This document shows, in pieces, positions 7,101-64,000 of a stretch of DNA of 64,000 nt (position 1 is its first letter; the number at the start of each line of letters is the position of its first letter). Below the pieces are notes generated by a model that was not told the DNA's origin, did no database searches, and was given only the letters and a program-made list of their open reading frames with translations. The stretch is from Candidatus Dojkabacteria bacterium (GTDB taxonomy: Bacteria; Patescibacteriota; Dojkabacteria; J137), in contig JBDTVZ010000001.1 of NCBI GenBank assembly GCA_040006935.1, forward strand, positions 231,772 through 295,771, written 5' to 3'. Position numbers and translations under genes: made by a program.

Positions 7101-10100
7101 GCGCTGGATAAAGATACTGCATTTACTTTCAGATTAATTGTAGAAGATGGGAATGGAGTTAGAAGTATTGCCAGAACAAAAACCCTTGTTATTAAAAAGA
7201 ATACATTACTCCCAACAGAACTTAATAATGTAAGTAATGAAGTTCAGGATGATTTTATTGATCCGAACGACCCAACTTCACAAATTGATACGAGCTCCCC
7301 ACCAATTCTTGTAAATGTTACAGAGCAATTTGAATACGACAAAAATAATAATCGAATAAAGTATAAAGATAAAAATGGAAATATTACTAGGTATACATAC
7401 AACAATCGAAATGAATTAATTAAAACCGATAGTTATGGAGCAGGAGTTTCAATACTAAGCTCACAAATTTTTGCCTATGATAAAGTTGGAAATATTATTA
7501 AGAAAACTGATTTAACTTCTCCTGGAATTAACCAAGATGGAAACATAACTAGATTTATTTACGATTCTTTAAACAGAATTACAGAAACAATAAATCCTGA
7601 TGGAAAATCTCAAAAAATTAAATATGACATTCTTGGAAGAGTTATCGAAAAAACGGATTTAGAAGGAAATGTAACTAAATACGAATACGATGCATTAGGA
7701 AGAAATACTAAAATGATTGATTCTAGCAATGCAGCTACCATATATAGTTACGATAGAGTAGGCAATATGATAAAAAAAATTGATACTCTTGGAAACGCAA
7801 CTATTTATGCATACGATTCTTCAGGAAGAACTAGTGGGGTAAGAAATGCTATAGGAGATGTTGCTAATTATGTTTACGACTCAGTTGGAAATTTAATTGG
7901 TCAGAGAAATTTTGCAGGAGAATTAACAATTTTATCTTACGATGGGAATAATAATCTAATTGGGCAAACAAATACATTAAATTTAAAAACAAATTTTGAA
8001 TACGATTCTCGAAATAATTTAACAAAAATTACAGATCCAAATGGAGATTATACAACCTATAATTACGATGCAATGGGAAATAAAGTTAGAGAAGTAGATG
8101 CTTTAGGACAACAAAAAAATCTGGTGTACGATAATAATGGAAACCTAATTCAATTTACTGGAGAAAATGGCGAAAGTATTAAGACAAGTTATGATGGCCT
8201 TAATAGAAAAATTGCAGAAGTGGATCAGAAAGGGAATACTGTAAAATATCAATACGATTCACTAGGTAATGTTATAAGCCAGACAGATAAAAATGGGAAT
8301 GGGACAAGTTATAAATACGATAAGAATAGAAACGTAATCGAAATTGTAAATGCACTTGGTGATAGTCAACGAATTGAATATAGTCCAAATGGAAACATTT
8401 TAAAGACTATCGATCCGCTAGGGAATGCTACAACATACAAATATAATAATTTAAATGAAAATATTGAAACAATAAATCCAATTGGTGGATCAATTAAATC
8501 TACTTTTGATTCATTAGGTCGATTGACATCAAAAACGGATTTACAAAATAAAGCTACAACATATGCTTACGATTCATTAGGAAATGTAATAAAAATTACA
8601 GATAGAATAGGGAACGAAACTTCAATTGAGTACGACAAAGTTGGGAAAGTTATAAAAGTAACAAAACCAAATGGGGCAATATCTCAAAGTGAATACGACT
8701 CAATTGGAAGACTTGCAAAAGATATTAATGCGGAAAATGGAGTTACAACTTACGGTTACGACAGTGCTTCAAACTTAATCTCTACAACATTGCCAAATAA
8801 TATTACAACTAGCTTTGGATATGATTCATTAAATAGAAAAGTCCATGAAAGTGTTGCAGGAGTTTCTAAGAGTAGTGAGTACGATTCAATTGGAAGACTT
8901 ATTAAAAGTATAGATGCTAATGGGAATCAAACTAGTTATCAATATGATTCCGTAAATAATATTGCAAAAGTTACAAATCCAAGAGGCTTTAGTACTAATT
9001 TTGAATACGACAATAATGGAAATTTAACTAAAGTCACAAATGCAAAGGGCACTGCTACAACTTTTGAATATAATGGATTAAATCTTCAAACAAAAACTAC
9101 ACAAGCAGATGGAACAACTCTATCGCAAGTTTATGATAAAGATGGAAGAGTAGTGAAAAGTATTGATCCAAAAGGAAATTCTATAGGGAATTCTTACGAT
9201 GCTCTTGGAAGAATTGTAAGTAATAAAAATCAGTTAGGAAATTCAACAAGTTATGAATTTGATGCAAATGGTAATGTAGTTAAAAAAACTGACGCGGAAG
9301 GTAACCTTACAAAGTATGCATATGATAGTTTAGATAGATTAGTCAAAGTTACAGATGCTTTAAATCACGATACTAACTATGAATATGATAATGTTGGAAA
9401 TTTAACTAAGGAGATTAATGCCAATAATAAATCGACTATAAGAAATTATAATAAATTGAATCAGTTGAAGGAGGAAACAGATCCTCTTGGAAATAAAGTT
9501 AGTTATAGCTACGATTTAGCGGGAGATTTAGTTTCTAAAGTTAAAGCCGATGGAACTGTAGTAGGTTACTCATATGATGCTTTAAATAGATTAAACACTA
9601 TTGGATTTAGTGATTCTAATCAAAATGTAAATTATGAGTATGACAATGCTGGAAATATTACAAAAATACAAAAAGGTAATAGTGTAGTTTCATTTATTTA
9701 TGATGAGAATTCAAATCTAATTTCTGCAACACAAGATGGAAATTCTACAGTTTCTTATAGTTACGATGAACTTAATAACCAGTCTCAAATTAGGTATCCT
9801 AACCAAACAATTGCTGAATTTGACTATACGGCTTTGAATCAAGTCAAAGATTTGAGCATTAAAAAGAATTCTGCAATTTCTACAACTCAATTTGGTTACG
9901 ATGCCAACGGGAATTTAACTTCTCAGGTTAATCCAAATGGGTCCCAAATTTCTAAAGATTATGATAATACAAATAGATTAACTAAAGTTTCTGATATTTC
10001 AATTACTCACGATAGCGAGGGCGTGACAAACACATCTAATATTGCAGAGTTTAATTATAGTTTAGATAAAAACGGAAATAAGTTGAGCGAAGGATTTAAG

Positions 10101-26669: not shown

Positions 26670-26915
26670 GGAAGAGAAAATAAAAAGTATATATACATAC
26701 TACCAGTTTCCTGACAGGAATGGAACATTTCCCTTAAACTGACATTATGCACTGTGACCTATACCCCATAACTTTAGTTATTAAATGATAACTTTAATGA
26801 GTCCTGATTTTCAGGACGATTATTAGATTTATGTTGGCTTTAGCACGCCACTGATTATCTCTTGAATATATGTTTGTGGAGTTACTCAACTTTCCTCTCA
26901 ATATAAACACTTAAC

Positions 26916-26982
26916 TCCCTCCTTGCCTGCCTTGCCTGTCGGCAGACACGGTCGGCAGGCATGAACGTCAGGCAGGTTGATA
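26916..26982. repeat. GC-rich intergenic island with GTCGGCAGGCA / GTCAGGCAGG direct repeats (repeat family member R1)
   Basis: GC-rich segment just 3' of the giant gene. It shares CGGCAGGCA-type cores with 42815..42875 and 63110..63130. Confidence 0.4.
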
Positions 26983-26993
26983 ACGTTTAATTG

Positions 26994-29900
26994 TTACTCA
27001 ATCCACCAATCCAACCAAACACTTGCACCTCCACTTAATTCTCGATACTCAACTTTAATGGTGTGAAGACCAGCAGTCATATTTAATGTTGCATCATCTT
27101 CCTCATATCCATGAGGTCCCCAATGATCTATTGCGAGAGTTCCGTCAATCCAGACTCTTACCCCATCATCGCTACCTTCCATAAATGTATATGTGTCTGC
27201 ATCAAAGTAGAATTGTCCCTCATATCGAGCAGAGAAGTTGTTACTACTAATTCCACTGATTGGTGAGTTCGATCCCCAATCATAATCAACATTCGATGTG
27301 TACATAGACATTGTTGGTGTTCCTGTTAATGTTGCATTATTAAAGTATTTTGCACAGAACCTTCCAACGTCCACACAATTTGATGTTTGAGTTTGAGGAA
27401 GTGTCCAAGATAATCCTGCTGTAGCATCTCCTGTTCCATCGTAATATTCCATTTTGATAGCATGAGCTCCTGCTGTTAATGTAACTGTCGAAGAATTCAT
27501 AGTTGTTGTATGCGATGTCCAATTATTTATTTTTTGAACATTATCTACCCATAACCTAACTCCATTATCTGATGTTGTAACGAACGTATAACTTCCAGCA
27601 GTTGGGAAATTAATATTTCCAGTCCATCTTGCAGAGAAATTATTACTATTTACTGATGCATCGGGACTTCCTCCCCACCAGAAATTAGAAATTGTATCTT
27701 CACATCTTGTTAGAACTGGAGAGCCAGTTAAACCTGTATTGTTATAGTATTGCGCAGTAAATGTACAACTCGCATTGACTTTGAATAGAGCAGATTTGCT
27801 TGCTGTTGCTCCGTGTGAATCTGTTGCTATGAATTCTATATTCTGTTGACCAGTCCAGTTTACTGGTGTTGTTATTGTGACAACATTGCTAGCATTGATA
27901 CTTACAGTTAGCGGTCCATTATTTGCATAGCTCCAAGTGATTGGATCTGCAATATCTGGGTCACTTCCATAATTATCTAAATCGAATGTTGTAAAGCTTT
28001 GCCCTAATACGATTGTTTGTCCTGGAATTGTATTTACAACTGGATCATTATTATCAACAGGTTCAAAGTATTGCCATACTGATGCTCCTCCTCCTATTTC
28101 TCTGTACTCACCTTTTACTTGATGAACACCAGCAGATACGTTTATAGTTTTATAATCCTCTTGGTACCCATGTGGACCCCAAGAGTCTATTACTGCTTGA
28201 TTATCTAGCCAAACTCTTACTCCATCATCAGATGCTGTCCCAAATTCATAAGTTTCTCCTGTGAAAGTAAAGTTTCCTCTCCATCTTAACGAAAATGCGT
28301 CATCGTTAGTTATTCCATGTCCAGGACCCCATTGCTGCCAGTCTGCATCCACACCATTTTGTACTGCTACAAATACTGGACTTCCGGATAGAGTAGAATT
28401 ATTGAAATATTCTACACAGTAGAGATCACTTGGAATAGTATTGCAATTCCCTCCGTACTGATACCATACTAAAGCTACGACAGCATCACCCGTCGCTTCG
28501 TAATATTCCACTTTTACACTATGAATTCCTGAAGTCAATGTTATGTCATAATCATTATTTTCCCATGAGTGACTTGTCCAGTTATCAATTCTTAGTGTGT
28601 TATCTACCCAAACCCTAATTCCATTATCTGAGTTTGTATGGAAAGTGTAATTGCCAGCCGCAAAGTTTATATTCCCTTGGTATCTTGCAGAGAAATTATC
28701 TGCATTAACAGATGGATCCGGACTATCACCATCCCACCAGAAGTTTTGAACAAGACTTTCGCACCTTGTAAGAGCTGGGGTTCCAGTTAAGGTTTGATTG
28801 TTAAAGTATTGTGCAGTGAATTGTCCTGCACATGCGTCCACCACATTATTTACTTTGAATAGCGCAGAACTACTTGCAGTAGCAGCGGAACTATCTGTTG
28901 CTGTAAATGTAACCGATTGTTCGCCCACCCAGTTTGCAGGAGTTGCTACTGTAACTATATTGTTTGAATCGATATTTACAGTTAAAGGTCCGTTATTGCT
29001 ATAGCTCCAAGTTATTGAATCTGCAATATCTGGATCTGTGCCATAAGTATCTAAATCAAATGTTGTAAAATTTTGTCCTAGGGTAACTGTCTGGCTTGGG
29101 ATTTGTGTTACTACCGGTGTACTATTTGCAACTGGAACAAAATATTGCTCTATGATTGCATTTCCACCAATTTCTCGGAATTCACCTTTTACTTTGTGAG
29201 TACCAGAATTTACTCTCATAGTCTTAGCAGTTTCCTGATAACCATGAGGTCCCCAGTCATCTATTACTAATTGATTATCTAACCAAATTCTTGCTCCATC
29301 GTCTGAAATTTCATCAAATTTATATGTTCCAGTGTTAAAACTGAAGTTGCCCGTCCACCTTATAGAGAAACTATCATCATTAGTAATTCCATGTCCTGGT
29401 CCCCATTGTCCCCAGTCAGAATCTACCACTCGTTTTGTAGTTACAAATACAGGGCTTCCGGATAAATCAGAGTTATTGAAGAATTCTATACAATATAGAT
29501 TTGTTGGAACTGAATTACAATTTCCTCCATATTGATACCATGTTAAAGATGCTACTGCATCACCTGTTGCTTCGTAATACTCAACTTTTATATTATGAGT
29601 TCCTGCAGATAAAGTGATGTCGTAATCATTGTTTTCCCAAGAGTGACTTGTCCAATTATCAATTCCTAGAGCTCCATCAATCCAAACTCTAATTCCATTG
29701 TCTGAGTTTGTATGGAATGTGTAATTACCAGCAGCAAAGTTTATATTTCCTATCCATCTTGTCGAAAAATTATCTGCATTTACTGTTGCATCAGGACTTG
29801 TTGTTCCCCACCAGAAATTATCGATAACATCTTCACACCTTGTAAGAACCGGTGCATTAGTTAAAGTTTGATTGTTAAAGTATTGTGCAGTGAATTGCCC

Positions 29901-32900
29901 TACGCAAGCATCCGTGCTAACTGTGAAGGTTGCTGTACTATTTGCAGATGCATTTGCAGCATCAGTTAAAGTAAACATTATTGATTGAGATCCTGTCCAG
30001 CCATTTGGAATTGTTATAGTTACAACTTTTTGAGTATCAATATTTACACCCAAAGAACCGTTTCCTGAATATGACCAAGTTAGTGTATCGCCAGCATCTT
30101 GATCGCTTCCATAATTATCCAAATCAAATGTTGTAAAGTTCTGTCCTGTTGAAATTGTCTGACCAGGAATTTGACTTACTGTTGGTGGATTATTTGGCGG
30201 TGTATTAACTGTAAATACTGCCGTCGAACTTGCATTGGCGCTTAAATTATCTGTGGCTTTAAAAGTAATATTCTCCGTTCCAGTCCAATTACTTGGATAG
30301 GTTAGAGTAGCTACATTATTTACAATTGAAATTGAAATATTTGTATTTCCAGAGTAACTCCAAGTTACTGAATCTCCTGCATCCTGATCACTTCCATACG
30401 AACTCAAATTAATTGTTGAGAAATTTTGACCTCTAGTAATAGTTTGATTTGGAAGTTGATTTACAACGGGTGCGTGATTTGCATTTAGTAAATCAATTTG
30501 CAATTTTGCTTTTGCCCCACCTGCATTTTCAAAGTATTCCATTTTAACCTCATGTACGCCTGCTGTAAGAGTTTTAGATCCTGCATATGGAGTCTGACCA
30601 TCTTGATCAATCCATCTATCAACAACTAAAGTACCATCAACCCACAATCGTGTTCCATCATCTGTCCATGTCGTGAAGTTATAATTCCCTCCTGCTGCAA
30701 AGTTTATATTTCCTGTCCAACGAATAGAGAAGTTATCTTGTGGACACTCAATTTGATTTGTAATTGCTACAGGATTTAATGTTCCAGTTACTGAATTACA
30801 ATAGGTAATGAATATTCTTCCTAAGCCGCCTTGTCCACCGCCTCCAGAAGGTCCATTTTGATTTCCACCGTTTCCTCCGAGTGCTGTAGATAAGTTTGAT
30901 CCAAGATTAAAAATACTTCCATGTAGAATTATAGTTCCTGCGGCACCTCCACCTCCACCACCAACGTGGCTTCCAGCATTGTTCCCGCCACTTCCATCCG
31001 CATTAATTTTACCTTGAAGATTAATTACATTAGCATATCCAAATAGAATTCCTCCTCCATTTCCACCATTATTTCCATTTATTGTTGTGATATTTCTTCC
31101 TTGATACCCACCGCTAGCTCCACCACCAGAACCAAATAATACTGAAGATTGATCATTTACACCAATACTTGATCCTCCACCACCTCCACCTGTTCCAACA
31201 TCCGGACTATTCCATGAGTATCCTCCAGTTCCAGTATATCCTAATGCTTGAGAACCACCGTTAGAACCGGCAACCGAAACTCCTCCTCCATTTCCACCAC
31301 CTACTGTACTTCCGGCTAATCCTCCTGGCTGTCCATTTACATTACTATCGGATCCACCTCCGCCTCCACCTCCTGCTGTAGCATTTGCACCACCACCTCC
31401 TCCACCTGTTCCTTCATCACCTTGGCCTGAATTTAAGAAGTCATATCCTCCGGATCCAGCTCCTCCTGATCTTAAACCTGCAGGAGATGTTGCACCATTT
31501 CCAGAACCACTTCCACCTCCGTATGAACCAGTTCCATTTGGAGAATTACCTCCTCTTCCAACAAATCCATCTGTAGACTCACCATTAATCCCTCCTAGAT
31601 TTACTCCCACACCAACTCCTCCTCTGTAACCCTTACCTTTTAGGTCAATTATTCCTAAAGTTCCCACATTTACTGTGCCGTTTGCTTTGAATGCCATAAC
31701 TCCCCCTGTACTTCCATCCCAATTTGCTACAGTGAAGATTCCGTCTATATTAATATTTCTATATTGATTGACTTTTAGAATCTGAGCTACTGAACCACTA
31801 CCCACTGTATAAGTATTATTCAAATTATTTGTTAATGTTAAATTTGTTCCTGAAATACTTGCAACGGTATTGAATTCATACTTTCCCACTCCTGTTCCTA
31901 ACATTTGAATTATTAATATACTATCACCTGCAGTAAATGCACTTGAAGGTGCTCCACTTATAGTAACAATCTTTTGATTTGCAGCAGAAGTCAATGAAAC
32001 TGCACTTCTAACAGTATCTGTATAAACTGTCTGGTTTGTAGAAACACTTAGATCTCCTTCTCTTCCATCTCCTGTTTCGTTTCCTGGAGTTACTAGAGGT
32101 ACTGGACCTCCTCCCGCCCAATCAAAATCAATTGTGTCATCACATGATGTACCTACAGGAGTTCCATTTAACTCTTTATTTGGATAATATTGACCATAAT
32201 ATTGATTAGTTGAACAAGGCCATATTGTAAAGTTTGCACTCTTAGTTGCTTCTGCATGCCAATTGTCAGTTGCTTTAAATGTAATATTTTCTGTACCAGT
32301 CCAATTTGCAGGATAAGTTAAAGTTGCTACGTTATTCGTAATAGAAACTCCAATATTAGAATTACCTGAGTAACTCCAAGTTATTGTGTCTCCACTATCC
32401 TGATCACTTCCATAACTAGCTAAATTTATATTTGTAAAAGCTTCACCTGCTCCAATTCGCTGATCCGGAATAGTTGTTATAACAGGTGCATGGTTATTTG
32501 CTGGTTGAACAAAAAATTGTGCTAATGCATTGCCCGTTGCTTCGTAGTATTCCATTTTTACAGTATGTAAGCCAGCAGTTATAGGAGTAGCTTGAGATAA
32601 GTTAACCCCGGCATTATTTATCCATTTATCTATTAATAAATTAGCGTCAACCCAAAGCTTTGTACCATCATCTGTATTTGTCTGGAATATATATGTATTT
32701 GCAGAGAAATTTATATTTCCTGTCCAACGAATAGAGAAGTGATCTTGAAAACAATCCGTTTGAAGTTGTTTTGTTACCTCTAGTGCAGAGCCTGTTATGG
32801 CATCACAATATTCTATCCTTGTTCTACCACCTCCACCATTTCCACCACCTGCTCCTTGCGAAGGTGTTCCTGGTCCTCCATTCCCGCCATTTACTAATAA

Positions 32901-35900
32901 TTTATTTGTTTCAATATTTGCAGATTTTGTTTTAAGAACTATAGTTCCACCTGCACCTGCGCCTCCACCTCCTGCTAAGTTGTAGCCTCCACCTTGTGCT
33001 GAAGCACCATTACCACCTACCGAAGTTATTTGCCCTGTAATATTTAAAACATTTGCATCTATTAAAATTGCTCCTCCACCATTACCTCCAGCTCCACTAT
33101 CTGTTCCATCTTGGCCTGCTCCTCCACTTCCACCACCTCCACCAAAGTACAATTTTTCTACTTCGTTAGTTCCATAAGTTTTTCCTGGTCCTCCATTACA
33201 CCATCCATCTGATGAAGGTGATAAGCCTCCACCTCCATCTGTTTTATTTCCACCACCTCCACCTCCGGAAGCATGTTTATTTGAGTCCCAAACATAAACA
33301 TATCCATGTCCTGGACCCCCACCGTTTGCATTTGAATCATCATTTTGCCAACAATCAACAATGTTATTATTGTAATTTCCTAAATATCCTTCTCCTGCGT
33401 GTCCTCTGTCTGGATTATTTTCTGTTGTTCTGGAACCTCCTCTATATCCTTTTCCATCAACTCCTATGTCACCAACTACTGTAACAGTTCCTGTGGCTTT
33501 TATAGCTACTATTCCACCAGTTTGACCATCCCAATTATGAGCAGTTAAATGACCATTCACAGTTAGATTATGGTATTGTGCTACTTTTACAAATTGAACA
33601 ATATCACTACCACTCACTGTATATGTATTTGCTAAAGGTGAAGTTAATGTAACTGTGTTTCCACTAATACTTTGAATAATTCCATATTCATATGTTCCAG
33701 TAGAACTTCCAACCATTGAAACTATTATTAACCTATCTCCTTTATCTAATTGATTCATTGAATTCAATTTTATTTGATTAGATCCACTTGTTGCTGTTTC
33801 TGTTAAGTTTCCACGAATATCATCTGTATATATTGTTTGAGTTGAATCTATCGTCAAATCTGGCAAACCTTGAGCTACTGGGCCTAAATTTCCCCAATCA
33901 TAATCAATATTACTTACACAATTAGTAAATTCTTCACCTCCACTTAAAGTAGAATTTCCATAATATTGCATCGCGTACTGTCCTGTTGGACATGCTACGT
34001 TTACATTAATAGATGCGCTTGCACTTCCACCTGTATTTTGAACAGTTACTGAAATTGTTTGGCTTCCCAAGCTTCTTAAATTATAGGTAGCACTTGCAGT
34101 TGATTGTCCTCCAACTGGAGTAGGTGACCAATTGTAAGTTAAGTTTGAAGCGTCCGATGGACTTGCTAAAGCAGTGAATGTATTATTTTCGTTTACATTT
34201 ATTTGATTAGATCCACTTATATATACTTGAACAGGCGCAACATCTTGAACTCTAAAACTGCCTTGAGCACTCCATCCGGAGTCACCCATTGGTGTCCAAG
34301 ATCTTACATGCCAATAATATGGATTAGCTGACGCTGTTAGATCTGTTCTTGTCCATGCACTCGAATCGATCCATCCGGAACCTTGCATCGTTCCATTAGG
34401 AATATTTCCTCCCCATACATCTACTGTGTACCTATCTCCATTTCCAGTCCAAGTCATAACTACTGGTGTTCCAGGAAGGAAACTAGCATTTTCTTGTGGG
34501 GAAAGCGGAGTAGGTGTAACTGAGCCAGGTGGACAGCTGCCTTGGCAAACTTGTATTGACGAAGCTCCATCTCTTAATCCTTGAGCTACAGCATTCAAAT
34601 CTGATACATCATGATTTGTACGTCCGCAAATTCCATGAAAACCACCATCTGAACAGATTATTACTTCATACCCAGAAGTTACTCTTATTGACTCTGTTTT
34701 ATCATTTCTTAGTTCGGAAGGTGTATCCCAGAAACTTAAGTCTGAAATTGTTCTATCGCTAGTGAATGGATTTCCATCGTTGTAATCTCCAAGTCTATAT
34801 AATTTAAATGCTTCTGGACTTCTTCTTCTAACTTGAATTGATGACGTATTATAACCGAAAGGAATTCCTCCTAAATCAGTATTTGTTCCATTTGTTTGAT
34901 ATCTTCTTGCTCCATAGTTATCATCTTCGAATAGAACTACTTCCCAATTTCCTCCAATATCAATAGATTTCAATGTATCGTTTCCAAAACCTTGGGCTCC
35001 TAAACTAGGAATATCTTGAGTAACTAAGAAACAATCTCCTTGATGATCGTTCCAAGAACCTGTAACTCTACAAATTTTAACCCAATCATTATTATTTCCG
35101 GAAGGACATACATTAGTACTATAAACTTTCATAGATTCTACGCTGTTGTACCAACCTCCAACTGTTTCTAAATTTTGTACTGATGAATTGAAACATTGTG
35201 TATTTCCGACCAATCCGATATGCTGATCACTTAAAATTACGGACCAACCTGATGGTATAGACATTGATTTATATTGAGCACCTCTATCTGGGGCTTCAGT
35301 TTCTCCTACTCCAGCTTGTACCCTAATTGATGATGGATCGTAACCAGAATTTCCGTATAGAACTACTTTGTCTCCTGAGTTTCCTCCTCCTCCCGTTCCT
35401 GTTGGGTAACATGCATCTGGAGTTCCTGAAGGTTTTAATTCACAACCGTTATTACATTGTTGAACTACGCTTATACTTCCATTACTACAGTTGAATAGAG
35501 TATTTGAGTCCAAACCTAAAGTACTTCCACAATAATTTCCATTTCCTCCACTTGGACATGTTCCACCACCTGTTGACACTCCTCTACAAACATCAGCTGT
35601 TCCCGGTGGTTTTTGAATACAACCATTCGAACAAGTTTGAGTTTCTGTTTTTACACCATTTTGACAGTTATAAAGTTTGTTAGCAGTTAAACCAAGTGAC
35701 GATCCACAATACATTCCGTTTTGACCATTTGGACAACTGGAAGTACTAGAACCTGTGCTACAGAAGTCCGCTGTTCCTTGGGCCTGAACACTACAACCGT
35801 TAGAACATTGCTGAATAAGACTATTATTCCCATTTGTACATTGATAAAGATTTGAATCGTTAATACCCAATGTGACTCCACAATATTTGCCATTTTGATT

Positions 35901-37973
35901 ATTAGGACATGTATTAGAAGATACTGGAGGGGTACATGCGGTTAAAGCTTCTAAACTAAGACCAGTAGCTTGTGCACTACAAACACCACCATCCAGTGTT
36001 ATATTTAATTGATTAGATGTATTATAATTTACGAATAAGTGACCATACCCATATACTCCATTACTTACTGCAACAAAATCTCTTCCACCTGGATATATAC
36101 TTCCCGAAAAATTAAACGTTCCATTATAATTTATTGGTACTGATATAGAAACTGGTTGATTTCCTGTAGAAAGATAAACATAACCACTTCTTGCTACAGC
36201 GCCTGAAGCATTTGGTAGAAATACATATCCGGCAACAGAGCCATAAACTTGACCATCTAACTTAAACTCACCTGCGAATTGAGTTGAAGATCCAGGGCTT
36301 GTTGCGAATTCATGATGTTGTATCAAATTTTCAATAGCAGGTTGTCCATTATAAGTCTGATCAAGGTCTTTATATAAAGACATATGTGCATGACAATTAC
36401 TTGTACCTGAATTTCCAACTTCCCCTAGTTTTTGACCATAAGTAACACTATCCCCATCTGAAACCACTCTTAAATTAAGATGCGCTACTCTCAAGGCAAT
36501 ATTAGGATTTTCACTTGAACGAACAATGATTGTATTTCCATAACCCGAGTTCGAGAAATATGAAGCTATAACAATTCCTGCGAAGGGGGAATTAAAGTTT
36601 TGATTGCAGTCATTTGCACCATTGATCCTATTCCAATCTTCTGCCAACTCATCTGCCCCATGATGAGTATCTGTACTGTGGCCATTACCTGTTAGTGCCC
36701 AATCTAAAGTATCAAAAGGCCAAAACATATGTATAGGGCTAGAATTTAAATCTACAGCTTGTTGCGAAAAAACGATATTACTAGTTTGACTTGTAGACTC
36801 ATTGCTATTTCCATTAGTTGATGGTGTATTCGTCCCAATCTCCTTATTACCACCAAAAGCAACGACTTTCCCATCAAGATTCACTGTTTGTCCTAATGCA
36901 ATATCTAAAGCATAAATTCCTGCAACTTGTGGCGCTGCAAAGCTTGTTCCAGAAACCAATCCATAAGTTCCATCAACTTTAGTTGTTAAAATATCTCTTC
37001 CTGGTGCATAAATATCAATTTGAGGTCCGTAAGTAGAAAAGCTTGATCTTTGAAGGCTCTGATCAATAGAACCGACTGCGATTGAATTTTCATAAGCTGC
37101 TGGGTAGAGCACTCCTTCTTGTCCAGTATTTCCTGCTGCAGCAACTACTATTACGTTTTTAGATTTTGCATAATTTACAGCATTTTCTAAAAGAGTAGAG
37201 GTATTAGAGCCTCCCAAACTTAAGTTAATTACTTTTGCTTCGTGATCGGCTGCATAAACAATTGCGGCAGCAACATTTGAATAACTTCCTAATCCTTGGC
37301 TATCTAAAACCTTTAATGGCATTATTTTTACATTTGGAGCAATTCCTGCAATTCCAATGTTGTTATTTATATTAGCTGCAATTATTCCAGCAACACTACA
37401 CCCATGTCCTAAATCATCATTTACATTACTTGAATTATCAATAAAATTCTTTCCATCTATTATTTTTCCTTGTAAGTCTGGATGGTTTGCACAAACTCCA
37501 CTATCAATTACTGCTACTTTTACTTCTAATTGGCTTTGCTCAGTTGTCATTGAATCCCAAACTGATTGTACATTCATTGTAGATAATGCCCATTGTTCTG
37601 AATAACTTGGATCGTTTGGTGTACTTAAAGCTGCTGCATAGTAATCAGGTTCCTGTGCTGCAACAATTGTAGATTCTGGTAAGGCTGTATTATTTGAATC
37701 TAAATTAACAACAACGGAATTCAAATTTGCGATTTCACTTACTACAGTTGCGCCAATAGATTTAATGTATGCCTGTTTCTCCTCATCAGTAGCACCTGGT
37801 TTGAAATTCACAACTACTTGGTTTGGTACAGGATCTTTTGGAATTACGACATTAGAAAGATTCTCAGATTCGGAAGACTTTTTTATATATGTATAAACCA
37901 AAGAAAACACCGACACCACCAATGTGAGAGTTAGGATGAATAACGCATACCGTGACTCTTTGAATGTTTTCAT
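26994..37973 (-). CDS. Giant secreted multidomain protein with I9 propeptide, S8 subtilisin, M23 peptidase, Cys-rich repeats, ~10 PA14-like domains, cadherin-like domains and two Gly-rich beta-solenoid-like modules
   Basis: 3659-aa uninterrupted ORF with an N-terminal signal anchor. S8 triad candidates: VAVIDSGV, HGCSVAGI, GTSFAAPQVAG. M23 motifs: HHGAD, VAHLN, CHAHMS. Four CPNGQNGxYCG...C repeats. Repeated PA14-like units of the form FTAQYFNN...NFSARWTGNINF...SDNGIRVWVD. NHAPV...WSYSGN cadherin-like units. GKGYRGG followed by GGGG-rich runs. Confidence 0.85.
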   Translation of the reverse strand: MKTFKESRYALFILTLTLVVSVFSLVYTYIKKSSESENLSNVVIPKDPVPNQVVVNFKPGATDEEKQAYIKSIGATVVSEIANLNSVVVNLDSNNTALPESTIVAAQEPDYYAAALSTPNDPSYSEQWALSTMNVQSVWDSMTTEQSQLEVKVAVIDSGVCANHPDLQGKIIDGKNFIDNSSNVNDDLGHGCSVAGIIAANINNNIGIAGIAPNVKIMPLKVLDSQGLGSYSNVAAAIVYAADHEAKVINLSLGGSNTSTLLENAVNYAKSKNVIVVAAAGNTGQEGVLYPAAYENSIAVGSIDQSLQRSSFSTYGPQIDIYAPGRDILTTKVDGTYGLVSGTSFAAPQVAGIYALDIALGQTVNLDGKVVAFGGNKEIGTNTPSTNGNSNESTSQTSNIVFSQQAVDLNSSPIHMFWPFDTLDWALTGNGHSTDTHHGADELAEDWNRINGANDCNQNFNSPFAGIVIASYFSNSGYGNTIIVRSSENPNIALRVAHLNLRVVSDGDSVTYGQKLGEVGNSGTSNCHAHMSLYKDLDQTYNGQPAIENLIQHHEFATSPGSSTQFAGEFKLDGQVYGSVAGYVFLPNASGAVARSGYVYLSTGNQPVSISVPINYNGTFNFSGSIYPGGRDFVAVSNGVYGYGHLFVNYNTSNQLNITLDGGVCSAQATGLSLEALTACTPPVSSNTCPNNQNGKYCGVTLGINDSNLYQCTNGNNSLIQQCSNGCSVQAQGTADFCSTGSSTSSCPNGQNGMYCGSSLGLTANKLYNCQNGVKTETQTCSNGCIQKPPGTADVCRGVSTGGGTCPSGGNGNYCGSTLGLDSNTLFNCSNGSISVVQQCNNGCELKPSGTPDACYPTGTGGGGNSGDKVVLYGNSGYDPSSIRVQAGVGETEAPDRGAQYKSMSIPSGWSVILSDQHIGLVGNTQCFNSSVQNLETVGGWYNSVESMKVYSTNVCPSGNNNDWVKICRVTGSWNDHQGDCFLVTQDIPSLGAQGFGNDTLKSIDIGGNWEVVLFEDDNYGARRYQTNGTNTDLGGIPFGYNTSSIQVRRRSPEAFKLYRLGDYNDGNPFTSDRTISDLSFWDTPSELRNDKTESIRVTSGYEVIICSDGGFHGICGRTNHDVSDLNAVAQGLRDGASSIQVCQGSCPPGSVTPTPLSPQENASFLPGTPVVMTWTGNGDRYTVDVWGGNIPNGTMQGSGWIDSSAWTRTDLTASANPYYWHVRSWTPMGDSGWSAQGSFRVQDVAPVQVYISGSNQINVNENNTFTALASPSDASNLTYNWSPTPVGGQSTASATYNLRSLGSQTISVTVQNTGGSASASINVNVACPTGQYAMQYYGNSTLSGGEEFTNCVSNIDYDWGNLGPVAQGLPDLTIDSTQTIYTDDIRGNLTETATSGSNQIKLNSMNQLDKGDRLIIVSMVGSSTGTYEYGIIQSISGNTVTLTSPLANTYTVSGSDIVQFVKVAQYHNLTVNGHLTAHNWDGQTGGIVAIKATGTVTVVGDIGVDGKGYRGGSRTTENNPDRGHAGEGYLGNYNNNIVDCWQNDDSNANGGGPGHGYVYVWDSNKHASGGGGGGNKTDGGGGLSPSSDGWCNGGPGKTYGTNEVEKLYFGGGGGSGGAGQDGTDSGAGGNGGGAILIDANVLNITGQITSVGGNGASAQGGGYNLAGGGGAGAGGTIVLKTKSANIETNKLLVNGGNGGPGTPSQGAGGGNGGGGRTRIEYCDAITGSALEVTKQLQTDCFQDHFSIRWTGNINFSANTYIFQTNTDDGTKLWVDANLLIDKWINNAGVNLSQATPITAGLHTVKMEYYEATGNALAQFFVQPANNHAPVITTIPDQRIGAGEAFTNINLASYGSDQDSGDTITWSYSGNSNIGVSITNNVATLTYPANWTGTENITFKATDNWHAEATKSANFTIWPCSTNQYYGQYYPNKELNGTPVGTSCDDTIDFDWAGGGPVPLVTPGNETGDGREGDLSVSTNQTVYTDTVRSAVSLTSAANQKIVTISGAPSSAFTAGDSILIIQMLGTGVGKYEFNTVASISGTNLTLTNNLNNTYTVGSGSVAQILKVNQYRNINIDGIFTVANWDGSTGGVMAFKANGTVNVGTLGIIDLKGKGYRGGVGVGVNLGGINGESTDGFVGRGGNSPNGTGSYGGGSGSGNGATSPAGLRSGGAGSGGYDFLNSGQGDEGTGGGGGGANATAGGGGGGGSDSNVNGQPGGLAGSTVGGGNGGGVSVAGSNGGSQALGYTGTGGYSWNSPDVGTGGGGGGSSIGVNDQSSVLFGSGGGASGGYQGRNITTINGNNGGNGGGILFGYANVINLQGKINADGSGGNNAGSHVGGGGGGAAGTIILHGSIFNLGSNLSTALGGNGGNQNGPSGGGGQGGLGRIFITYCNSVTGTLNPVAITNQIECPQDNFSIRWTGNINFAAGGNYNFTTWTDDGTRLWVDGTLVVDRWIDQDGQTPYAGSKTLTAGVHEVKMEYFENAGGAKAKLQIDLLNANHAPVVNQLPNQTITRGQNFSTINLSSYGSDQDAGDSVTWSYSGNTNISISIVNNVATLTYPSNWTGTENITFKATDNLSANASSTAVFTVNTPPNNPPTVSQIPGQTISTGQNFTTFDLDNYGSDQDAGDTLTWSYSGNGSLGVNIDTQKVVTITIPNGWTGSQSIMFTLTDAANASANSTATFTVSTDACVGQFTAQYFNNQTLTNAPVLTRCEDVIDNFWWGTTSPDATVNADNFSTRWIGNINFAAGNYTFHTNSDNGIRVWIDGALGIDNWTSHSWENNDYDITLSAGTHNIKVEYYEATGDAVASLTWYQYGGNCNSVPTNLYCIEFFNNSDLSGSPVFVTTKRVVDSDWGQWGPGHGITNDDSFSIRWTGNFSFNTGTYKFDEISDDGARIWLDNQLVIDDWGPHGYQETAKTMRVNSGTHKVKGEFREIGGNAIIEQYFVPVANSTPVVTQIPSQTVTLGQNFTTFDLDTYGTDPDIADSITWSYSNNGPLTVNIDSNNIVTVATPANWVGEQSVTFTATDSSAATASSSALFKVNNVVDACAGQFTAQYFNNQTLTGTPALTRCESLVQNFWWDGDSPDPSVNADNFSARYQGNINFAAGNYTFHTNSDNGIRVWVDNTLRIDNWTSHSWENNDYDITLTSGIHSVKVEYYEATGDAVVALVWYQYGGNCNTIPSDLYCVEYFNNSTLSGSPVFVAVQNGVDADWQQWGPGHGITNDDAFSLRWRGNFTFTGETYEFGTASDDGVRVWLDNQAVIDSWGPHGYQEDYKTINVSAGVHQVKGEYREIGGGASVWQYFEPVDNNDPVVNTIPGQTIVLGQSFTTFDLDNYGSDPDIADPITWSYANNGPLTVSINASNVVTITTPVNWTGQQNIEFIATDSHGATASKSALFKVNASCTFTAQYYNNTGLTGSPVLTRCEDTISNFWWGGSPDASVNSNNFSARWTGNINFPTAGSYTFVTTSDNGVRLWVDNVQKINNWTSHTTTMNSSTVTLTAGAHAIKMEYYDGTGDATAGLSWTLPQTQTSNCVDVGRFCAKYFNNATLTGTPTMSMYTSNVDYDWGSNSPISGISSNNFSARYEGQFYFDADTYTFMEGSDDGVRVWIDGTLAIDHWGPHGYEEDDATLNMTAGLHTIKVEYRELSGGASVWLDWWIE
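36369..36731 (-). other. Peptidase M23 (LytM-like) domain of the giant protein with intact Zn-binding motifs
   Basis: HHGAD (HxxxD), AHL and CHAHM (HxH) at aa ~437-531. Confidence 0.6.
36894..37601 (-). other. Peptidase S8 (subtilisin) catalytic domain of the giant protein
   Basis: Asp, His and Ser motifs are intact at aa ~157, ~190 and ~343. Confidence 0.7.
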
Positions 37974-56965: not shown

Positions 56966-57095
56966 TCCCTCTCCTTTTAAGGAGAGGGTTAGGGTGAGGT
57001 CATACCACACCGAAAGCATTACCTGACTTTTGTGTGGTCCTGATTGAGCTTTGCTAATTAACGGGATTGCAACGAAAATTGCATTACTCAGGAGT
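56966..57095. repeat. Composite GC-rich structured repeat (family member R4) with hairpin CCCTCTCC-TTTTAA-GGAGAGGG, GGTGAGG, 12-bp hairpin CCACACCGAAAG-loop10-CTTTTGTGTGG, and ACGGGATTGCAACGAAA
   Basis: Modules recur at 50056..50130, 58170..58282 and (inverted) 63098..63302. Confidence 0.55.
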
Positions 57096-57986: not shown

Positions 57987-58169
57987 TATATATGACTTTA
58001 CAGCTATAAATCTTAGCGGGTTTACGAGCTTTAGATTTATGTTGGCTTTAGCCCACCGCATTTTTTTGTTTTTGGCAGTTTTATACTGCATGAAGTTACC
58101 TTACTCTTTGATCGGGACAATCTCATAGAAGTTACGAAGTAACTCTTGCTGACAAGATGAACATTTATT

Positions 58170-58282
58170 TTCTCGCAGTGGGAGTTTGAGGGGAAATGTT
58201 TTTGACGTCATTGCGAGCCCGAGTTTAACGAGGGCGTGGCAATGAGGTAAGTTACAGAGTCACGGGATTGCTTCGTCATTTC
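58170..58282. repeat. GC-rich structured repeat (family member R5) abutting the msrA stop
   Basis: GACGTCATTGCGAGCCCGAG...GCGTGGCAATGAGG...GAGTCACGGGATTGCTTCGTCA. Its modules are reverse-complements of those in 63098..63210. Confidence 0.5.
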
Positions 58283-58809
58283 TTCCCATATTTCTCCCCG
58301 AGTTCCTTTCTAAATTTTGCAAGTTTTGGCGCAATTACAATAGAGCAGTAACCTGCATTAGGATTGTTCTTAAAATAATCTTGATGATAATCTTCTGCTG
58401 GATAGAACTTAGTAAAGTCTGTAACTTCAGTAACAATTGGTTTACTAAATACTTTATCCTCATCAATTGCTTTAATTACTTCTTCAGCATCCTTTTTTTG
58501 TTGATCATTATGATAAAAAATCGCAGATCGATATTGAGTTCCAACATCCGCACCTTGTTGATTCAAAGTTGTAGGATCATGAGTTTTTAAAAATATTTCT
58601 AATAACTCTTTGTAGGTTATCACTGATGGGTCAAATTCAAACTGAGTTGCCTCTGCGTGACCAGTAGAACCGAAAGAGACCTCTTCGTAACTTGGATTTT
58701 CCTTAGTTCCACCAGAATAGCCAGACATAACAGGACCAACACCTTTAACATTCTCAAAAATCTCTTCTGTACACCAAAAACAACCTGAAGCAAAAGTAGC
58801 GGTTTCCAT
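58276..58809 (-). CDS. msrA: Peptide methionine sulfoxide reductase MsrA
   Basis: GCFWCTE active-site motif and GYSGG. Conserved throughout. Confidence 0.9.
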   Translation of the reverse strand: METATFASGCFWCTEEIFENVKGVGPVMSGYSGGTKENPSYEEVSFGSTGHAEATQFEFDPSVITYKELLEIFLKTHDPTTLNQQGADVGTQYRSAIFYHNDQQKKDAEEVIKAIDEDKVFSKPIVTEVTDFTKFYPAEDYHQDYFKNNPNAGYCSIVIAPKLAKFRKELGEKYGKK

Positions 58810-58870
58810 ATTTGATAGTTAATAGTTAATAGTTAATAGTTAATAGTTAATAGTTAAAAGTTAAAAGTGA
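58810..58870. repeat. Tandem heptamer repeat (TAGTTAA)x5 plus degenerate copies
   Basis: TAGTTAATAGTTAATAGTTAATAGTTAATAGTTAAAAGTTAAAAGTGAATAGTTAA lies between the msrA start and tRNA-Arg. Confidence 0.7.
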
Positions 58871-58978
58871 ATAGTTAAGAACTCTTTAATTAGTATAAAT
58901 CTTGATGTCAGGATTGACAATAATAATGATATAATTGTCGCAGTTATCAACTGTTAACTCTTAACTTTTTAACTAGTA

Positions 58979-62202: not shown

Positions 62203-62583
62203 TTATATAGGCTGATTATCTTCAGATTGATTTTCGTCAGCTAGCATTTTTTTCATTAATGCTTCCATTCTGTCTCCTAATTCTATTGCTTGATCTTGAT
62301 GGGTTTCACGGAATTCACTAATTACCCCTTTAAGTTCCACTTGCATTAAAGTTATATGTAAATCTAATTGAACCTTCTCCTCTTCGGTAGTTGTATCGCT
62401 GTGAAGTTTTTCATTTAAATCGTTTAGTTTCTTAGCAGTTTTTTCTACCTTAATTAAAAGCTCATCCAAGGTCATCTCACCAATATCTCTAGAATTATCT
62501 AAGAGATCCTTTAATGAAACATGTTTAACTGGTCCATTCTCTTCCTGTGGTGTCCCAATTACTTTGTAAGGCTTTTCATCCAT
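62203..62583 (-). CDS. Hypothetical acidic coiled-coil protein
   Basis: 126-aa ORF. Confidence 0.3.
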   Translation of the reverse strand: MDEKPYKVIGTPQEENGPVKHVSLKDLLDNSRDIGEMTLDELLIKVEKTAKKLNDLNEKLHSDTTTEEEKVQLDLHITLMQVELKGVISEFRETHQDQAIELGDRMEALMKKMLADENQSEDNQPI

Positions 62584-62618
62584 AGTAAGTACTTAAGAAA
62601 TATTATTACAATTATATA

Positions 62619-63071
62619 TTAATTACTTTTTCGACTCAACCACCAAGATAAAATCACCAAAACTGTAATTCCAGCAAAAGCCATTAAAGACATCATTGGA
62701 ATTGTTAGGAATCCGAATAGTTTGATATCTATTACTTCACAAGGTAATGCCTCGCTACAAGGAATAAAAGAAATATTTGGAGTTCCAGTTGATTGTATAT
62801 AAACATGATATATCGCGACTAAAATTCCTGGAACACTTAAGATTAGAAACCATGGTGAATTAATTTTCTTTTTAAATAAAATTAATAATGCAGCAATTGG
62901 GAGCAGTGGATACATGAAATATCTTTGTACATAGCAAAGATTACATGGTGGTAAGTTTAAGAAAAACTGAAAGTATAAACTTCCTGCAACAGATGCAAAT
63001 GAAAGTAAGAAGATTATTACGAGATAATCGTCTTTGATAAAGTTGATGAGTTTTGTTTTGTAGTTTTGCAT
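62619..63071 (-). CDS. Disulfide bond formation protein B (DsbB/BdbC family)
   Basis: Four TM helices. First cysteine pair in PPCNLCYVQR, second pair in FIPCSEALPC. Confidence 0.6.
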   Translation of the reverse strand: MQNYKTKLINFIKDDYLVIIFLLSFASVAGSLYFQFFLNLPPCNLCYVQRYFMYPLLPIAALLILFKKKINSPWFLILSVPGILVAIYHVYIQSTGTPNISFIPCSEALPCEVIDIKLFGFLTIPMMSLMAFAGITVLVILSWWLSRKSN

Positions 63072-63097
63072 AAGTTTTGTATTTAATAGTTATTTTG

Positions 63098-63302
63098 TTG
63101 TCATTGCGACCGTGCCTGCCGTCAGGCAAGGGGAGTGTAACGACGAAGCAATCCCGTGACTCTTGAACTTACGGGATTGCCACGTCCTCATCCCGATGAA
63201 TCGGGACTCGTCCTCGCAATGAGATCTTAAGCCTCACCCCTGACCCTCTCCTAAAGGAGAGGGTGGTTCGATCCGCCCAAGGCGGAGAGAACCGGGAGAG
63301 GC
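63098..63302. repeat. Composite GC-rich structured repeat (family member R6), inverted relative to R4/R5
   Basis: GTCATTGCGACCGTGCCTGCCGTCAGGCAAGG, GAAGCAATCCCGTGACTC, ACGGGATTGCCACGTCCTC and TCCCGA-TGAA-TCGGGA. CCTCACCCCTGACCCTCTCC-TAAA-GGAGAGGGTGG is the reverse complement of the R4 module. Confidence 0.55.
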
Positions 63303-64000
63303 TTATTCAAATTTCTTAAACAAAATAATCGTCTCATTATTCTTCAAAGCGTTTCTAGCATTTTCACAACTTGTTGGAATAATAGGTTCGTATAAATCTA
63401 TTACTGTACTAATTAAATAGCTTAAATTGTTTAATACTTTTTGTACTTTATCAGAATCTTTTTCAGACCATGGTGCGTTATCTTGAATATATTTATTTCC
63501 GTATTCTGCTAATTGAAATATTTCATCACATGCAAGTTTAATGTCAAAATCAGTATAAAGATTTTCGATTTTCGATTTTCGATTTTCGACTTCTTTTTTA
63601 AATTCTGGTTCTACAAGATCTGCATTATTAATTGACGCTTCTTTCTTATTAGCCAAATGAATAACTCGGTTTAATAAATTTCCAAAGTTATCTGCAAGTT
63701 TTGAGTTAAAGCTTGCTTTCAAGTCAGGTTCTAAATAAGCTGCATCTCCGTAAGTTGGGAGTTCGGACAGCATATAGAATCGAACTGCTTCGTATCCAAA
63801 TTTTTCTAATTGGTCAAATGGGGAAACTACATTTCCAATAGTCTTGCTCATTTTCCTTCCATCTGGTCCTAAAATAGTTCCGTGGCATAAGAACTTTTTG
63901 GAAGGTTCTAATCCTGCAGATAACAACATTCCTTGCCAAATTGCACATTGGAATCTTAAATTATCTGGTCCAAATATTTGAGTAACTGGCCACCATTGTT
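63303..64000 (-). CDS. metG: Methionyl-tRNA synthetase, C-terminal portion (5' end beyond window)
   Basis: KMSKTIGNVV (KMSKS motif), GYEAVRFYMLSELPTYGD, and an anticodon-binding helical domain. Confidence 0.8.
   Translation of the reverse strand, partial: QWWPVTQIFGPDNLRFQCAIWQGMLLSAGLEPSKKFLCHGTILGPDGRKMSKTIGNVVSPFDQLEKFGYEAVRFYMLSELPTYGDAAYLEPDLKASFNSKLADNFGNLLNRVIHLANKKEASINNADLVEPEFKKEVENRKSKIENLYTDFDIKLACDEIFQLAEYGNKYIQDNAPWSEKDSDKVQKVLNNLSYLISTVIDLYEPIIPTSCENARNALKNNETIILFKKFE

Follow-up and report, generated by a model that had tools for sequence, protein, structure and literature searches.

A GC-rich element between metG and dsbB in a Candidatus Dojkabacteria bacterium is probably a mosaic of REP-type palindromic DNA repeats

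The closest described systems to R6, a GC-rich block (63099-63302; 205 bases) in the metG-dsbB spacer of a Candidatus Dojkabacteria bacterium, are the CGTC-tagged repetitive extragenic palindromes (REPs) and the REP pairs known as REPINs. We analyzed R6 within a 64-kb stretch of DNA (the window). CGTC-tagged REPs, as described in the text of Di Nocera, De Gregorio & Rocco (2013, BMC Genomics 14:522, PMC3733652), carry a CGTC, TGTC or CCTC tag, an 8–9 bp stem that starts with AT, a loop of 4–5 nt and a CCA tail; they form inverted dimers, lie near stop codons and also occur inside repair genes. The authors equate CGTC-1 with Neisseria dRS3 and RPE-6, and the superfamily takes in the Rickettsia palindromic elements (RPEs) RPE-4 and RPE-6. 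A REPIN consists of two inverted REPs that make a hairpin of ~100 nt, is extragenic and is non-autonomous (Bertels & Rainey 2011, PMC3116915; bioRxiv 10.1101/2021.07.10.451892). The Neisseria REPIN master sequence, ATTCCCGCGCAGGCGGGAATC, is a CGTC-1 unit, and how large the REPIN population is and how far it has decayed depend on whether a Group 2 REP-associated tyrosine transposase is functional (RAYT; Bertels & Rainey). According to these descriptions, a REPIN-RAYT pair has a lineage-specific sequence, is passed on vertically and is missing from plasmids and phages. In the bacterial interspersed mosaic elements (BIMEs) of E. coli and in the mosaic intergenic arrays of Neisseria, short palindromic modules are juxtaposed in alternating orientation within one spacer; BIMEs are bound by IHF, gyrase or Pol I.

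R6 has a GC content of 58–65%, compared to 33% for the window. The genes on either side, metG and a DsbB-family gene, are both on the minus strand, and their MetRS and DsbB homologues come from Candidatus Dojkabacteria, with one DsbB match of 100% identity on a 516,739-bp metagenome-assembled contig at NCBI. R6 is predicted to fold on either strand into two multi-branch structures, modules A and B, with z scores against shuffled sequences of −8.8 and −9.1 for RNA (two strands) and −5.7 to −7.3 for DNA. The gene boundaries are as follows:

63303-63305, minus strand: stop codon TAA of metG, placed by MetRS homologues, 0 nt from module B.
62619-63071, minus strand: DsbB-family gene, start codon at 63069-63071, 27 nt from module A.

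We conclude that R6 is probably a mosaic of non-coding, non-autonomous REP-type palindromic DNA repeats. Its architecture shows membership of a repeat family, and the analysis also shows the very wide distribution of that family, its insertion-site behaviour and its turnover at orthologous sites.

Module A is predicted to fold into a three-way junction with three hairpins and a closing stem, CATTGCGA/TCGCAATG. It consists of two units of the form (C/T)GTC-ATTGC-GA-(variable hairpin)-GAA/GTG-GCAAT-CC:

63099-63224: module A, an inverted, REPIN-like heterodimer of two repeat units, 126 nt, from predicted folds.
63102-63109, plus strand: 5' half of the closing stem, CATTGCGA, from sequence match and fold.
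63214-63221, plus strand: 3' half of the closing stem, TCGCAATG, complement of CATTGCGA and paired in the fold.
63099-63155, plus strand: unit U1, with TGTC tag, ATTGC, GA, a 35-nt inner segment, GAA, GCAAT and CCC.
63107-63131, plus strand: inner hairpin of U1, module C (CCTGCC..GGCAGG type), with the stem-loop TGCCTG-CCGT-CAGGCA at 63113-63128.
63148-63180: central hairpin GCAATCCCGT-N13-ACGGGATTGC, made by the tails of both units, arms at 63148-63157 and 63171-63180.
63173-63224, minus strand: variant unit U2, with TCTC tag, ATTGC, GAG, an inner hairpin, CGTG, GCAAT and CCC.
63191-63206: inner hairpin of U2, TCCCGA-TGAA-TCGGGA, from sequence and fold.

The original prediction, made from the letters of the window, had already listed both long-range inverted repeats (CATTGCGA/TCGCAATG and GCAATCCCGT/ACGGGATTGC) and the TCCCGA-TGAA-TCGGGA hairpin, and all of them are present at the places given. 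The tag of the plus-strand unit is TGTC (63099-63102), and the minus-strand unit carries the off-consensus TCTC. In both units ATTGC pairs with GCAAT, so that stem positions one and two are A-T; the inner segments are 34–35 nt long and the tail is CCC. In dimers the two tails pair together. A covariance model, R1, built from 120 units on viral contigs, recovered U1 with 29.5 bits (E = 4e-4 in the window) and U2 as a weak match (12.1 bits, E = 1.4). The ..CGTGGCAATCC variant seen in U2 pairs with ..CGAAGCAATCC units in a Helicobacter canis prophage and at many genome loci, and the prophage dimers have the same GAA/GTG heterodimer arrangement as R6.

These features place module A beside the CGTC/TGTC REP superfamily, with which it has in common the unpaired (C/T)GTC tag, a stem with an AT start and an AT end and a predominance of inverted dimers; a CC(A)-type tail may be a further likeness. 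As in that superfamily, copies lie between unidirectional or convergent open reading frames (ORFs) near stop codons, occur in frame in replication and repair genes, and have no dedicated transposase that could be found. The unit differs in that only 5 bp of its stem are conserved, followed by a purine-rich internal loop (GA/GAA) and an inner hairpin that varies, in place of a perfect 8–9 bp stem with a 4–5 nt loop, and in that its hosts include Patescibacteria and viral contigs, which PMC3733652 does not list. Module A mostly fits the CGTC/TGTC-tag REP superfamily, by comparison with the text descriptions of CGTC-1 to CGTC-4, and we file it there as REPIN-like and without assignment to a family. 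With REPINs it shares the inverted two-unit hairpin of about 100 nt (126 nt for module A), the extragenic location, the lack of autonomy and the decay of old copies. R6 as a whole resembles BIMEs and the Neisseria arrays in combining several kinds of palindromic module in one spacer, although the module sequences differ. With RPEs the family has in common GC-richer palindromes in a small AT-rich genome and in-frame insertion in essential genes (AlaRS, TopA, UvrD and RecO in this family); R6 itself, however, is intergenic, and RPEs have a greater length and, the link of RPE-4/RPE-6 to CGTC units aside, are mostly confined to Rickettsia.

A second, damaged copy of module A lies near msrA in the same window:

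58204-58282: R5, a decayed and truncated copy of the module-A dimer, from alignment to R6; a single unit with a CGTC tag (58206-58247) and a loop precede ACGGGATTGCTTCGTC.

The inverted match between R5 and R6 (58230-58280 versus 63139-63189) is the longest in the window. It covers 44 of 51 identical bases, includes an exact 22-mer, and has an expected number by chance of ~1.7e-8. Likeness confined to short GC runs with no positional correspondence had been named as grounds for giving up the relationship; the alignment instead keeps positional correspondence from CATTGCGAG to GGGATTGCTTCGTC, over ~85 columns with one 11-nt indel. The 5' part of R6 had been taken for the reverse complement of R5, and this holds with the correction that R5 is the truncated, decayed partner. 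Its unit retains the CGTC tag (58206-58209) and the pairing of ATTGC with GCAAT, but its central hairpin has one broken arm, it does not fold significantly better than shuffles (z = −1.4), and the msrA stop codon (58276-58278) falls within the remnant.

Copies of the repeats are widespread. Three collection scans each returned at least 120 stretches: the A-unit pattern GTCATTGCGA..GAAGCAATC and the module-B motif class in viral contigs, and the exact arms of the R6 central hairpin, GCAATCCCGT..ACGGGATTGC, in GTDB genomes. The viral contigs bearing A or B motifs range from 33 to 73% GC. Among the GTDB matches listed, most are from Patescibacteria (Moraniibacteriota, Paceibacterota, Parcubacteria, Saccharibacteria, Falkowbacteria, Komeilibacteria and one metagenome-assembled genome (MAG) of Dojkabacteria), and the others come from Dehalococcoidia, Bacteroidota (Mucilaginibacter), Proteobacteria (Acetobacteraceae, Gammaproteobacteria) and Oscillospiraceae. 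Other MAGs of the candidate phyla radiation (CPR) hold at least 7–10 copies each among the matches listed. Among cultured bacteria, Methylosinus, Methylobacterium and Novosphingobium also have canonical dimers, the last of these with 40 or more sites on a single megaplasmid. A BLAST search with R6 gave no match in plasmids and a single 32-nt match in phages.

The collected units define a consensus, (C/T)GTC-ATTGC-GA-(inner)-GAA-GCAAT-C(C/T). Of 188 units, 82 have C and 96 have T before GTC, a position left free in the search pattern. The tail has C in its first position, C or T in its second and mostly C or A in its third, with CCAG in alphaproteobacterial copies. Full dimers with both TGTCATTGCGA and TCGCAATGACA termini make up 91 of the 126 core matches listed and measure 76–166 nt (median 103 nt); full elements start with GTCATTGCGA after a T and end with TCGCAATGAC before an A. 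Single units, or half-elements, are very common, and each is a hairpin by itself. Depending on the anchor, we counted 105–108 distinct inner sequences, most of them hairpins closed by G-C. Both inner types of R6 recur inside units elsewhere, the CCTGCC..GGCAGG type of U1 at two loci (L327 and L340) and the GTCCCGA..TCGGGAC type of U2 at five (L004, L288, L325, L338 and L344).

The inner helix covaries: the pair 15-31 is GC in 28 sequences, CG in 19, UA in 7 and AU in 5, and none of 500 shuffles reaches the observed score. The outer stem shows sequence conservation and no covariation; with the inner part held fixed, it reads TGC/GCA in 119 of 135 cases and CGC/GCG in 4. This check of the outer stem did not bear out a supposed ATCCT/AGGAT variant that would share the inner sequence. 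The commonest apices are GC-GNA-GC, that is, GNA triloops closed by C-G. A GNA triloop closed by C-G is an unusually stable type of DNA mini-hairpin; stable RNA hairpins more often carry GNRA or UUCG tetraloops.

The kind of repeat is already known; what is new is the host group, the two-part stem whose inner hairpins are modular, and the occurrence in phage DNA. In the open-access literature we found no report of REP-type repeats in Patescibacteria or of the R6-type family in phages, and literature searches by sequence string found nothing relevant. Several viral copies deserve separate mention. The Helicobacter canis prophage BK070053 (L244, 300-14431) holds at least nine units in 24 kb. In some of the phage contigs among the viral loci L006, L009, L018 and L039, units stand directly upstream of Shine-Dalgarno sequences. 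Head-to-tail tandem arrays, an organization stated to be negligible for CGTC REPs, occur in viral contigs with periods of 33, 43 and 238 nt (L049 2695-2818, L023 28-101, L413 442-943).

In AT-rich genomes, 38 copies lie between unidirectional genes and 6 between convergent ones, whereas divergent gene pairs have none; the copies lie at a median of 9 nt past the upstream stop codon and 29 nt ahead of the next start codon. R6, 0 nt past the metG stop and 27 nt ahead of the dsbB start, fits this spacing. A subfamily with an asymmetric 23-nt loop occurs in both orientations relative to transcription, and no strand bias of single units relative to genes was found (31 same versus 25 opposite, by crude ORF calls). 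Target-site duplications were sought, as had been proposed, and were absent from 83 of 90 full copies. Some dimers with TGTCATTGCGA..TCGCAATGACA termini sit in frame inside CPR genes for AlaRS, UvrD, topoisomerase I (TopA), RecO (at the same position in two genomes) and a Wzy_C protein, where they add peptides of ~30–40 residues such as LSLRGAERRSNPV...PRND, in the manner of Rickettsia RPEs. The in-gene loci are L319 2379-2475, L322 3947-4025, L325 1771-1894, L270 4086-4200, L286 3296-3395 and L293 993-1104. The peptides of intragenic CGTC-1 to CGTC-4 copies (e.g., VIPAKAGI, VIAGLDPAI) do not correspond to ATTGCGAG..GAAGCAAT.

We compared orthologous sites. The gene order metG-dsbB-Cho-like gene-msrA is conserved in Dojkabacteria with 66–71% identical DsbB, and the sites are occupied as follows:

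Window: R6 between metG and dsbB; decayed R5 at the msrA 3' site, the remnant containing the stop codon of msrA.
L365: between metG and dsbB, a dimer unlike that of R6, an ORF of 65 aa and a further element, TGTCAT..ATGACA; an intact dimer of the R6 subtype at the msrA 3' site.
L366: the small ORF alone between metG and dsbB; the contig ends before msrA.
L367: the small ORF alone between metG and dsbB; no element at the msrA 3' site.
L368: one CGTC-1-like unit in a 79-nt metG-dsbB spacer; no A-type element at the msrA 3' site (27-nt spacer).
L369: one CGTC-1-like unit in a 79-nt metG-dsbB spacer; the contig ends before msrA.

The insertion-site comparison that had been called for therefore finds presence, absence or a different type of element at both places: the metG-dsbB and msrA 3' sites gain, lose and exchange repeats. 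Because occupancy differs among relatives, these genes do not have R6 as a conserved regulatory feature. The small ORF in this list encodes a conserved membrane protein of 63–65 aa (MPLKLILLCFIAPFYAVRNKGW...) at L365 674-871, L366 4720-4911 and L367 277-468; it is absent from the window, where R6 fills the spacer, and from L368 and L369. We rejected L001, from a related Dojkabacteria MAG, as an empty site, since the gene downstream of its metG is not a DsbB homologue. In L001 the RNase J and LeuRS genes are called in 3–4 consecutive pieces (4594-6279 and 7173-9469) with no GC-rich element there; the split calls could be assembly errors, pseudogenes or interruptions. L002, at 43% GC, has no comparable element.

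The remainder of R6 is module B. Like module A, this module and the inner hairpins belong to a guild of GC-rich hairpin repeats. Its parts, and the other copies of its motif and of module C in the window, are:

63231-63302: module B, two enclosed hairpins, from folds (z about −7); adjoins the metG stop codon.
63244-63263: B hairpin, CCCTCTCC-TAAA-GGAGAGGG, with 0.00 matches expected in shuffles.
63265-63293: second hairpin, GGTTC..TCCGCC-CAA-GGCGGA..GAACC, from the fold; lies in a sub-threshold alignment to whalefall-1.
56967-56999, plus strand: R4, a simple module-B unit, CCCTCTCC-TTTTAA-GGAGAGGG-TTA-GGGTGAGG, hairpin at 56967-56988.
26894-26995: GC-rich island, up to 67% GC, with CCTGCC..GGCAGG-type hairpins; holds a copy of module C at 26930-26954.

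The closing pair of module B is CCTCACCC/GGGAGAGG, and in its enclosing stem GCCTCACCCC (63231-63240) pairs with GGGAGAGGC (63294-63302). This enclosed two-hairpin architecture recurs in L215 and L216. On the minus strand the B hairpin of R6 is followed by TCA-GGGGTGAGG, and the hairpin of R4 is followed by the tail GGGTGAGG. The 3' part of R6 is thus the reverse complement of the R4 hairpin plus tail, with the stem kept and the loop changed from TTTTAA to TAAA, just as the original prediction read it. A third common module went beyond that reading: R6 63107-63131 matches 26930-26954 in inverted orientation at 24 of 26 positions. B units occur in both orientations relative to transcription (8 versus 10). 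A fixed A+B composite was rejected, as A/B adjacency recurs only occasionally (L006, L020, L279); R6 is therefore a juxtaposition and not one unit that moves whole. About 60 nt downstream of R4, ACGGGATTGCAACGAAAATTGCATT (57060-57085) resembles a decayed arm of an A-type unit, and R4 may once have been a B + A composite. A T-arm-like string in module B, GGTTCGATCC, was considered as a tRNA vestige and discarded: the loop length is wrong, and neither a window-wide scan nor a relaxed Rfam scan of 62950-63450 gave a tRNA match.

Could R6 instead be a structured non-coding RNA or a cis-regulatory RNA, such as a relative of whalefall-1 or a dsbB leader? The very strong predicted RNA folding of both strands (z about −9) and the covariation of the inner helices speak for it, as does the position of R6: no promoter-like site was found in the 27-nt spacer between R6 and dsbB, and any transcript that reaches dsbB from upstream must therefore cross R6. 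whalefall-1 is a motif of environmental origin whose function is unknown (Rfam RF01762; Weinberg 2010, PMC2864571). Like module B it has a CUCUCC-loop-GGAGAG hairpin, to which a second hairpin and a GGGWGAGG-like tail are added in that order, and it matches R6 63242-63303 with 20.1 bits on the plus strand (E = 0.0095, search of 501 bases) and 16.6 bits on the minus strand. However, the better score is far under the gathering score of 37 bits, the match lies on the strand antisense to the genes, and R4, 12 B-rich loci and the simple, canonical B units of viral contigs do not match whalefall-1, even at relaxed thresholds; we rejected membership of whalefall-1. At the gathering threshold, Rfam finds two tRNAs alone in the whole window, with no family at R6, R5 or R4, and no family at the elements of 15 repeat-rich loci. 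Moreover, R6 is absent or replaced by different units between metG and dsbB in relatives, family members occur in both orientations of transcription and inside coding regions, and the outer stem is conserved without covarying. An RNA of this kind is accordingly unlikely. Of the suggestion that R6 represents a widespread structured non-coding RNA, the word widespread survives; the two orientations, the lack of conservation at metG-dsbB, the lack of an Rfam family at threshold and the DNA-type GNA triloops at the commonest apices speak against the rest.

It is very unlikely that R6 evolved locally as a terminator or mRNA-stabilizing hairpin cluster that was never mobile and resembles R4 and R5 by convergence of GC-rich hairpins. 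R6 does follow directly on the metG stop codon with very stable hairpins, and E. coli REPs stabilize upstream mRNA. Against this, no terminator-like site was found on either strand of 62500-63700 and no U/T tract lies 3' of any R6 hairpin, and for lack of a T tract R6 is not a terminator; the dsbB start follows 27 nt downstream with no promoter-like site between. R6 resembles R4, R5 and the island at 26.9 kb by homology of aligned positions and not by composition, and the same units occur in hundreds of unrelated contigs.

A classical miniature inverted-repeat transposable element (MITE), derived by deletion from an insertion sequence with a DDE transposase and moved by cut-and-paste at terminal inverted repeats, has a very slim chance of being the answer: module A has conserved inverted termini (TGTCATTGCGAGG...CCTCGCAATGACA), a length of ~125 nt and many related copies with patchy site occupancy, but without target-site duplications R6 is no classical MITE, half-elements that are hairpins themselves are very common, and none of 42 unit-flanked genes is a transposase gene with these ends. 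The idea of a mobile miniature element family thus holds for the large palindromic repeat families and the patchy orthologous sites; the type is REP/REPIN, and present mobility stays at candidate level.

If R6 is a mosaic of REP-type repeats, its modules may have spread via single-stranded DNA hairpin intermediates, moved in trans by a RAYT-like HUH tyrosine transposase, by analogy with the Neisseria CGTC-1/dRS3 REPINs and their Group 2 RAYT. The DNA-type GNA loops, the absence of target-site duplications and the independence of orientation are consistent with such a route. R6 would be transcribed within a metG-dsbB transcript, as the 27-nt spacer has no promoter-like site and co-transcription with both genes would follow. 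Its structures would then act at most as a barrier to 3' exonucleases or a damper of downstream expression, and not as a dedicated regulator.

Several observations weigh against a REP-type mosaic. The unit lacks the perfect 8–9 bp stem and 4–5 nt loop given for CGTC-1 to CGTC-4, and module B belongs to no named family, its closest Rfam motif, whalefall-1, not being matched. The 64-kb window contains only two A-type copies (R6 and the remnant R5) and two B-type copies. Unlike the lineage-specific, vertically inherited REPIN-RAYT pairs, near-identical units span many phyla, a prophage, viral contigs and megaplasmids. Finally, none of the copies had a RAYT nearby: five RAYT/TIRYT sequences, used as tblastn queries, matched neither the window nor any of 463 loci, and no recurrent gene family flanked by units (a REPtron) was found among the 42 unit-flanked genes. 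The 2013 study of CGTC REPs likewise found no dedicated transposase (PMC3733652).

Other repeats in the window are recorded here for completeness. Within the metG coding region, a (GATTTTC)n tandem repeat (63561-63594) specifies the heptapeptide ENRKSKI twice over. Directly upstream of the msrA start, in the interval that separates msrA from a tRNA gene, lie ~10 copies of a 7-nt tandem repeat, (TAGTTAA)n (58808-58877). Another hairpin motif, ACAGCTATAAATCTTAGC..GCTTTAGATTTATGTTGGC..AGCCCACC, follows a nucleotidyltransferase gene (57995-58055), has a partial copy near the 26.9-kb island (26816-26850), and stands directly 3' of tRNA-Lys in the relative L365 (about 5450-5535). The island itself adjoins the stop codon of a repetitive 3,659-aa ORF (26994-37973, minus strand), which has internal repeats of ~1,070 nt and glycine-rich, GC-rich tracts (27000-33300). 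A gene at about 5.7–10.4 kb (5700-10400) has YD/RHS-type repeats with YDxxGN periodicity.

We also consider a bolder proposal, which is possible but doubtful: a fifth, as yet undescribed CGTC-tag family may be represented by the ATTGC-GA-(hairpin)-GAA-GCAAT unit, near-invariant over more than ten phyla, including Patescibacteria with their reduced genomes, and in phages, and kept so by a trans-acting factor that would recognize the tag, the 5-bp stem and the tandem G-A loops on single-stranded DNA. If true, this would break the REPIN-RAYT rule of lineage-specific vertical repeats and give a handle on the mobilizer of "orphan" CGTC REPs.

Whatever the rank of the unit, that a prophage and viral contigs carry it does not agree with the current view of REPINs as passengers inherited strictly vertically. 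So widespread a unit would be a convenient marker in the search for the enzyme behind the movement of CGTC-type REPs. The proper annotation for R6, R5, R4 and the island at 26.9 kb is that of palindromic repeat elements and not of candidate regulatory RNAs. Such repeats account for spurious small ORFs and for odd C-terminal extensions, as where the msrA stop codon lies inside R5. In Patescibacteria genomes of ~1 Mb, they fill entire intergenic spacers and even sit in frame in AlaRS, TopA, UvrD and RecO.

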